Positions 52,770-52,874 of a DNA stretch of 64,000 nt are shown one piece after another. The notes beneath the pieces were generated by a model, which searched no databases, was not told the origin of the DNA, and saw only the letters and a program-made list of their open reading frames with translations. The stretch is from Escherichia coli (GTDB lineage Bacteria > Pseudomonadota > Gammaproteobacteria > Enterobacterales > Enterobacteriaceae). Each line of letters opens with the position of its first letter. The stretch's first letter is position 1. The stretch is taken from NCBI RefSeq assembly GCF_029227855.1, contig NZ_CP074356.1. One strand, 5' to 3'. Position numbers and translations under genes: made by a program.

Positions 52770-52874
52770 TCACAAACCGCCATTAGCTTATCAGGAAGAG
52801 CAGACGACACGATAACAGGGGTGTTGGTGCGGGGGGGGGGCGGGTCCCCGATGGCGGTCCATTATCGGTATTCA

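Follow-up and report, generated by a model that had tools for sequence, protein, structure and literature searches.

The window, a 64,000-nt stretch of an Escherichia coli genome (contig NZ_CP074356.1), contains a prophage with a small tRNA cassette in its late region. Across positions 39718-64000, the window matches a prophage of E. coli WP8-S18-ESBL-07 (L001) collinearly, with 99.0-99.8% identity. The sole structural difference between the two was an IS21-family insertion present in L001 only, a 2.1-kb element (ISEc62, istAB) that splits a DUF968 gene at L001 11258-13380 and is absent at window ~50980-50985. In the annotation of L001, an integrase, early genes of the dicB/ydfABC type, RusA and an antitermination protein are followed by tRNA-Ile, tRNA-Arg, DUF3927, holin, lysozyme, terminase, portal and capsid genes. 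Immediately before the start of the prophage is a tRNA-Ser(CGA) gene, an integration site of the serU type (window 39036-39125, ~39150-40200); in the near-identical L001 record, the annotation marks the integrase gene as frameshifted. Four tRNA-Asn genes were found upstream of the prophage, at 8801-8876, 11210-11285, 13034-13109 and 37969-38044.

The original prediction had taken the two tRNA genes of the cassette to be prophage-borne, and the context supports it: the element is lambdoid, with a Q antiterminator gene that ends at 52550 and lysis and head genes beyond. The Q gene (51729-52550, + strand, 273 aa) was recognized from its open reading frame, a Pfam match to PF03589 Antiterm (180 bits, E 5.8e-54) and the 'antitermination protein' annotation in L001, and the tRNA cassette follows immediately downstream of it. 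In the stretch separating the two, a terminator scan located a tR'-like intrinsic terminator (52631-52657, +) with the sequence AACCCGCCGCCGAGCGGGTTTTTTATT, composed of a stem-loop at 52631-52650 and a following T run. An ileZ-type tRNA gene with anticodon CAT occupies 52694-52769 (+; ARAGORN; Rfam tRNA model, 69.4 bits; tRNA-Ile in L001 by its PGAP name), and an argO-type tRNA-Arg gene with anticodon TCT occupies 52875-52951 (+; ARAGORN; Rfam tRNA model, 68 bits; tRNA-Arg in L001). In lambdoid and Shiga-toxin phages, the tRNA cassette occupies this same site, after Q and tR'. Given this layout, with Q and the tR'-like terminator upstream, the cassette is probably transcribed within the Q-dependent late transcript.

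Several smaller features accompany these genes. At 52696, position 3 of the ileZ-type tRNA is a T, giving a G:U pair with position 70; the same position is C in most relatives and T in 8 of 34 distinct cassette sequences. The 52551-52657 segment between Q and the tRNAs contains a candidate extended -10 promoter (TTGATT, a 16-nt spacing and TGgTAAATT), recognized by eye and under the scan threshold, and has a weak similarity to the Salmonella prophage sRNA isrK (16 bits, E 0.8). Together with its strong terminator, the segment looks like a pR'-tR' short-transcript unit. The Rfam matches to Trp_leader (25.5 bits) and isrK were rejected as such, being far under their gathering scores and resting on the tR'-like hairpin. 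A Plastid-ycf2 match (32 bits) antisense to ileZ and a YrlA match (15-20 bits) that reflects tRNA-likeness were likewise far under their gathering scores and were set aside.

A long G run between the two tRNA genes had been predicted, and with ARAGORN and Rfam placing the flanking tRNAs its presence was confirmed, but neither the proposed length of nine nor the proposed position at 52842-52855 was correct. A script scan of the window placed a homopolymer of ten Gs at 52831-52840 (+), 11 nt further left, within the motif GCG10CGGG (GCGGGGGGGGGGCGGG, 52829-52844). The local sequence reads GGTGTTGGTGC GGGGGGGGGG CGGGTCCCCGATGGCGGTCCA, with G10 in the middle; positions 52842-52855 (GGGTCCCCGATGGC) cover the motif's 3' edge and the letters beyond it. 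The run starts 61 nt past the 3' end of ileZ and ends 34 nt ahead of the 5' end of argO. It was the sole G or C run of at least 7 nt in the 64 kb scanned. From base composition, ~0.06 G runs of at least 10 nt would be expected, and G/C runs of 6-7 nt were already under-represented in the window (three G runs of exactly 6 where 10 were expected, none of exactly 7 where the expectation was 2.6); G10 is therefore not a chance feature. The call was also reproducible, since nine complete RefSeq E. coli genomes among the best 60 matches showed no difference from the window across 52700-52950 (100% identity).

The 105 nt between the tRNA-Ile2(CAT) and tRNA-Arg(UCU) genes proved to be more than a spacer. 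The window was aligned with cassettes from three sources: an Stx2a phage with annotation, an E. coli genome with three tRNAs and a Stx2e prophage. The 105 nt were homologous, end to end, to argN with its short flanking spacers; in the ileZ-argN-argO cassettes, argN is annotated and has the anticodon TCG by ARAGORN. Over the full length, alignment to annotated cassettes gave a mean column identity of 91%. The earlier description of the run as lying in the tRNA spacer thus holds as far as its place between two tRNA genes is concerned, but the alignment shows that the interval is an argN homologue and that the run falls in its T stem and T loop. The order ileZ-argN-argO downstream of Q and the late terminator is preserved in the window, with the middle member present only as a pseudogene, here termed psi-argN. 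This decayed homologue of argN, the tRNA-Arg(UCG) gene, is 85 nt long (52777-52861, +) and begins 7 nt past the 3' end of ileZ.

The alignment to argN allowed the parts of psi-argN (all on the + strand) to be assigned. The 5' acceptor strand CCGCCAT (52777-52783) and the D arm (52786-52801) are followed by an aberrant middle segment (52802-52829), a T-arm remnant (52830-52850), the 3' acceptor strand ATGGCGG (52851-52857), a discriminator T (52858) and CCA (52859-52861), the end of which lies 21 nt beyond the G run. The acceptor strands, the TA, the D stem, the CCCCG, the discriminator and the CCA are identical or nearly identical to those of argN. The canonical anticodon arm of argN, TCAGC-CTTCGAA-GCTGG, is replaced by AGACGACACGATAACAGGGGTGTTGGTG, a 28-nt hairpin that does not align with the argN anticodon arm and is unrelated to it. 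The T loop is likewise altered: canonical argN reads GC-GGGG-TTCGAGT-CC, whereas the window reads GC-GGGGGGGGGG-CGGGT-CC. The loop TTCGAGT has become GCGGGT in relatives with five Gs and GGGGGGCGGGT in the window, and the T-loop consensus (GTTCRAnY) is gone. The G10 run (52831-52840) aligns with GCGGGGTTCGAGTCC of intact relatives and corresponds to the 5' T-stem strand GGGG together with an extension that reaches into what was the T loop. This T-stem and T-loop alignment indicates that the run is the old T-stem GGGG, apparently extended through the ruined T loop.

The interval was then considered as a potential tRNA, defined by a covariance score of at least the gathering threshold of 29 bits or by detection with a tRNA finder, and psi-argN had neither. 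ARAGORN reported no tRNA in 52770-52874 or in the same interval of seven relatives, and the Rfam tRNA model RF00005 gave no match to 52770-52874 at E values up to 10, nor any in a relative with five Gs (L007) or in the phiP27 form (L004); with the same model, 58 bits are obtained for intact argN. Of the sampled RefSeq records, 15 have a degenerate T loop, and PGAP left the interval unannotated in all of them, annotating only two tRNAs in 14 and tRNA-Ile alone in one (L012), in which argO is truncated. A 5-bp stem with a 7-nt loop, as required of an anticodon arm, is absent from 52802-52829. By RNAfold, the loop of the middle hairpin has 3 nt in the five-G and phiP27 forms and 10 nt in the window, and the G at 52821 in the window breaks one pair of that hairpin. 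This G in place of T (GGGTTG to GGGGTG) marks the window haplotype, most relatives having T. The middle hairpin of the five-G and phiP27 forms has a 7-bp stem, CGAUAAC/GUUGUUG, and a 3-nt loop, AGG (window 52810-52826; the same segment in L004 and L007).

What psi-argN has kept is the outline of a tRNA. CCGCCAT pairs with ATGGCGG, followed by T and CCA, and RNAfold returned a cloverleaf-like fold consisting of the 7-bp acceptor stem, the D arm, the middle hairpin and a stem CGGGG/CCCCG, which has no anticodon loop. The energy of this fold was no better than that of shuffled sequence (z = -0.96 to -1.5). A working but unusual tRNA was ruled out by the ARAGORN and Rfam negatives, the absent anticodon loop and the absent T-loop consensus. 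A protein-coding reading was likewise rejected, as only spurious ORFs of 30-44 aa, overlapping the tRNA genes, cross the tract. The 105-nt interval is thus a tRNA pseudogene.

To survey the tract in relatives, the interval was read directly in 19 RefSeq loci and, with a gapped pattern, in 120 IMG/VR viral contigs. Lengths of G5 (the commonest), G6, G8, G9, G10, G11 and G12 were found, and length variants occurred on at least three sequence backgrounds; no G7 allele was present among the loci read, so that a stepwise path is not fully documented. In the IMG/VR set, 74 of the 120 loci carried G5 (GGGGGCGGGTCCCC) and 17 carried G6, while 11 had the GGGGCCGGGT variant, 12 an intact T loop (GGGGTTCGAGT), two G9, two G10, one G11 and one a further deletion. 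On the window haplotype, CATTAGC...GGGGTG, G9 (L134), G10 (the window and L001), G11 (L133) and G12 (L135) were read. The haplotype CATGAGC...GGGTTG carried G8 (L137), G10 (L136) and G12 (L005 and L139), and the haplotype GCTGGT carried G6 (IMG/VR) and G8 (L138). In one relative (L006, MMC-J-0020), G12 directly abuts CCCCG and the former T-loop CGGGT is deleted, a further decay on a long-tract haplotype. Among the best 60 RefSeq matches to 52700-52950, match lengths of 250, 251, 252 and 253 nt were obtained, and their representatives differed in the run only.

A BLAST search returned a cassette match in 3064 of 5426 complete E. coli genomes, annotated beneath as "tRNA-Ile, tRNA-Arg x2" or "tRNA-Ile, tRNA-Arg", and a BLAST search of phage genomes returned 289 records, mostly Stx2 phages with ileZ, argN and argO annotated beneath the match. 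Proportions in E. coli were estimated from an evenly spaced sample of 60 of the 3072 matching RefSeq records: about 8% had a long tract (G8-G12), about 40% G5, about 2% the phiP27 type and about 23% an intact argN, and the remainder were partial. Variation was concentrated in the tract. When 34 distinct cassette sequences whose T loop is degenerate were compared, 8 of the 15 tract and loop columns were variable, compared with 3 of 76 in ileZ, which is almost invariant across relatives, 2 of 77 in argO, 4 of 70 in the rest of psi-argN (3/54 and 1/16) and 0 of 20 in the spacers. The tract is the single hypervariable spot of an otherwise almost invariant cassette. The expectation that slipped-strand events would make the tract vary in length agrees with these data, since length differs between strains, from G5 to G12, while the rest of the cassette barely varies; compared across related prophages, the tract is not invariant.

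Homopolymer miscalling could in principle produce a long tract or its length variation instead of biology. Long G runs are prone to error in long-read and short-read sequencing alike, and many of the differences between records are only ±1-2 G, so that length differences of ±1 may include sequencing errors. However, the gap between G5 and G10-G12 is too large for a miscall, and the nine complete genomes agree on exactly G10 at 100% identity over 251 nt. Strains of the same lineage agree as well: none of three O166:H15 strains among the best 60 RefSeq matches differed from the window, and three MLI strains shared a match length of 252 nt, that is, G11, which was confirmed in one of them by reading the sequence. 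Long runs also occurred in IMG/VR contigs (G9 twice, G10 twice and G11 once). In addition, long alleles are linked to the substitutions at 52784 and 52821 and travel with them as true haplotypes. Because of the agreement within lineages and the linked substitutions, the lengths look heritable rather than random, and a sequencing or assembly artefact is an unlikely explanation.

The middle gene of this cassette has been altered in other prophages too. The argN gene of Stx2 phages, upstream of stx (e.g. Stx2a_WGPS8, AP012540), occupies the same slot between ileZ and argO downstream of Q and has in common with psi-argN the acceptor stem, the D stem, the 3' half of the T stem, the discriminator, the CCA and the flanking spacers. 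It differs in being 77 nt long and detectable by tRNA finders, whereas the 85-nt psi-argN, with its anticodon arm and T loop replaced, goes undetected. The middle element of the Stx2e/phiP27 type has the aberrant segment GACGACACGATAACAGGGTTGTTGGTG and the acceptor and D arms in common with psi-argN, but it keeps the canonical T loop (GGGG TTCGAGT CCTS) and has no long G run, while the window form has lost the T loop and carries G10. Stx2a/c/d phages have been described as carrying three tRNAs and Stx2e phages two (PMC7366253). A full-text literature search, with the classic 933W and phiP27 papers outside its scope, found no description of this pseudogene or tract, and a full-text search combining ileZ, argN and argO found no paper; a less strict one yielded no more than general remarks about which tRNAs Stx phages carry.

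Individual cassettes illustrate the range of states of the middle slot. In the Stx2e prophage of ETEC6334 (L004 424-504), the element is annotated by PGAP as 'tRNA-OTHER', is 81 nt long and has an intact T arm and no anticodon loop. In EPEC E2348/69 (L140 132-207), the copy is a tRNA-Lys(UUU) by ARAGORN and is unannotated by PGAP. E1620 (L141 216-312) holds an undetected decayed copy with the T loop CTCGGGT and a broken acceptor stem. In L012 (Survcare045) and some other relatives, ileZ and a psi-argN with G5 are kept and argO is truncated in its anticodon region; the DUF3927 gene comes next and only tRNA-Ile is annotated. The middle slot of the ileZ-X-argO cassette is thus evolutionarily labile, and as judged from these sequences argN appears to be dispensable, with repeated and independent decay or alteration across cassettes.

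Taken together, G10 is most likely an expanded, neutral and hypermutable mononucleotide tract in a tRNA pseudogene. That psi-argN is homologous to argN, that its tRNA features are lost and that tract length is polymorphic, repeatedly so on several backgrounds, are direct observations, while the slippage mechanism, the neutrality and the order of the decay steps are what we infer from them. The middle gene argN of the ileZ-argN-argO cassette would have decayed in this lineage, its anticodon arm being swapped for a hairpin without an anticodon loop. The T loop would have changed from TTCGAGT to GCGGGT, so that a new G would have come to adjoin the T-stem GGGG, creating G5. GGGG-CTCGGGT (L141) and GGGG-CCGGGT (11 IMG/VR loci) are possible intermediates, and a series GGGG-TTCGAGT, GGGG-CTCGGGT, GGGG-CCGGGT, GGGG-GCGGGT, ending in G5, is plausible. 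Homopolymer slippage lengthens and shortens runs, and does so faster as a run grows. G5 would then have expanded to G8-G12 by replication slippage in a minority of cases, about 8% of the matching E. coli records, and slippage that quickens with the growing run would fit a rare G6 followed by a broad G8-G12 spread on each long-tract haplotype.

The tract would be transcribed only within the late phage transcript. It lies in no credible ORF, and no promoter-like site was found nearby in the ORF list and promoter scan; most likely it has no function. The proposed effect on processing of the tRNA precursor is not expected for ileZ and argO, because the tract is 61 nt and 34 nt away from these two working tRNAs and leaves their processing sites untouched. 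Some points count against this reading or its neutral part. Some of the differences among the G8-G12 alleles may be homopolymer miscalls. The cassette diverged too recently for substitution rates to show neutrality, and outside the tract psi-argN is conserved like the working tRNAs; a selection test by column variability on psi-argN has no power in a cassette that is almost invariant throughout, the mosaic flanks being 47-57% variable. The retained 7-bp acceptor stem, T stem and CCA could also mean residual selection, for example on an RNase P site.

That the tract is instead a functional hypervariable switch, in which a G-quadruplex or another structure tunes late read-through or the maturation of the neighbouring tRNAs, is highly unlikely, even though it has some points in its favour. 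The tract is on the sense strand of the Q-dependent late transcript, downstream of tR' and upstream of the lysis genes, and its length varies on several backgrounds. With the G-quadruplex energies of ViennaRNA, a quadruplex is the predicted minimum-energy fold from G8 onwards; G10 is predicted to form a two-layer quadruplex (-44.6 vs -30.8 kcal/mol) and alleles from G11 a three-layer one (-59.9 kcal/mol). The energy model is rough, however, and quadruplex formation in E. coli is doubtful. The canonical motif needs four tracts of at least three Gs with loops of 1-7 nt, and G10-C-GGG can supply just three clean GGG tracts separated by short loops; joined to the CGGG that follows, alleles of G11 and G12 fit GGG-N-GGG-N-GGG-N-GGG, while for G10 only the two-layer form is predicted. 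The common G5 and G6 alleles cannot form a quadruplex at all, G5 is by far the commonest allele, and the match length of the isolated phage mEp460_ev081 is consistent with G5. The tract is also outside any ORF, promoter spacer or ribosome-binding region, and column variability in the almost invariant cassette yielded no evidence of selection. The contingency tracts of Campylobacter, Neisseria and Haemophilus resemble it in being poly-G runs of 8-12 nt whose length differs between close strains on one haplotype, as G9-G12 do on the window haplotype. They differ in that the window tract lies in a pseudogene, neither in a coding sequence nor between promoter elements, with no apparent on/off read-out. 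E. coli is mismatch repair proficient, and homopolymer contingency loci are not known as a strategy of this species.

It is similarly improbable that psi-argN as a whole is a functional tRNA-like RNA or processing module, whose acceptor/T helix and CCA were kept as an RNase P or 3'-trimming site separating ileZ from argO and whose loop merely tolerates the G tract. The 7-bp acceptor stem, the D arm, the T stem CGGGG/CCCCG and the CCA are intact and a four-arm, cloverleaf-like fold is predicted; acceptor/T minihelices can serve as RNase P substrates. The element is also widespread, with a degenerate copy in about 48% of the 3072 matching E. coli records as estimated from the 60-record sample, and it starts only 7 nt past ileZ. 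However, recent common descent explains the conservation equally well, this conservation is no higher than in the spacers, and the predicted fold does not surpass shuffled sequence, as the z scores above indicate. Single-sided acceptor changes (CCGGCAT, CCGTCAT and CCGCCAC) are uncompensated, the T to G change of the window breaks the middle hairpin, and the T arm of L006 has lost its CGGGT. The decayed copies of other lineages differ, with broken acceptor stems (L141). A combination of the two ideas, in which psi-argN would be a retained late-transcript module and the poly-G a heritable, slippage-driven tuner whose quadruplex at G8 and above would alter RNase P processing or Q-dependent read-through, is also very improbable; if true, it would mean that late expression of an E. 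coli prophage is controlled by phase variation.

With the expanded neutral tract as the preferred reading, there is nothing out of the ordinary about the G run: it is a hypermutable homopolymer, it sits in a decaying gene and its biological interest is low. An influence of the tract on late transcription or tRNA maturation would make it more interesting, and nothing found points there. The practical value is in annotation and typing. About half of the cassette-bearing E. coli records hold an unannotated argN pseudogene, so that "two-tRNA" cassettes are three-gene cassettes with a dead middle member, the ileZ-type (CAT) and argO (UCU) genes being intact in most sampled loci. The poly-G creates spurious or real differences of 1-2 nt in prophage comparison, SNP/indel typing and assembly polishing. 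For the biology of these phages, the locus offers a natural example of what appears to be a ruined T loop seeding a runaway homopolymer, and it documents what seems to be the repeated, independent loss of a CGR-reading tRNA-Arg(UCG) gene from lambdoid prophages.
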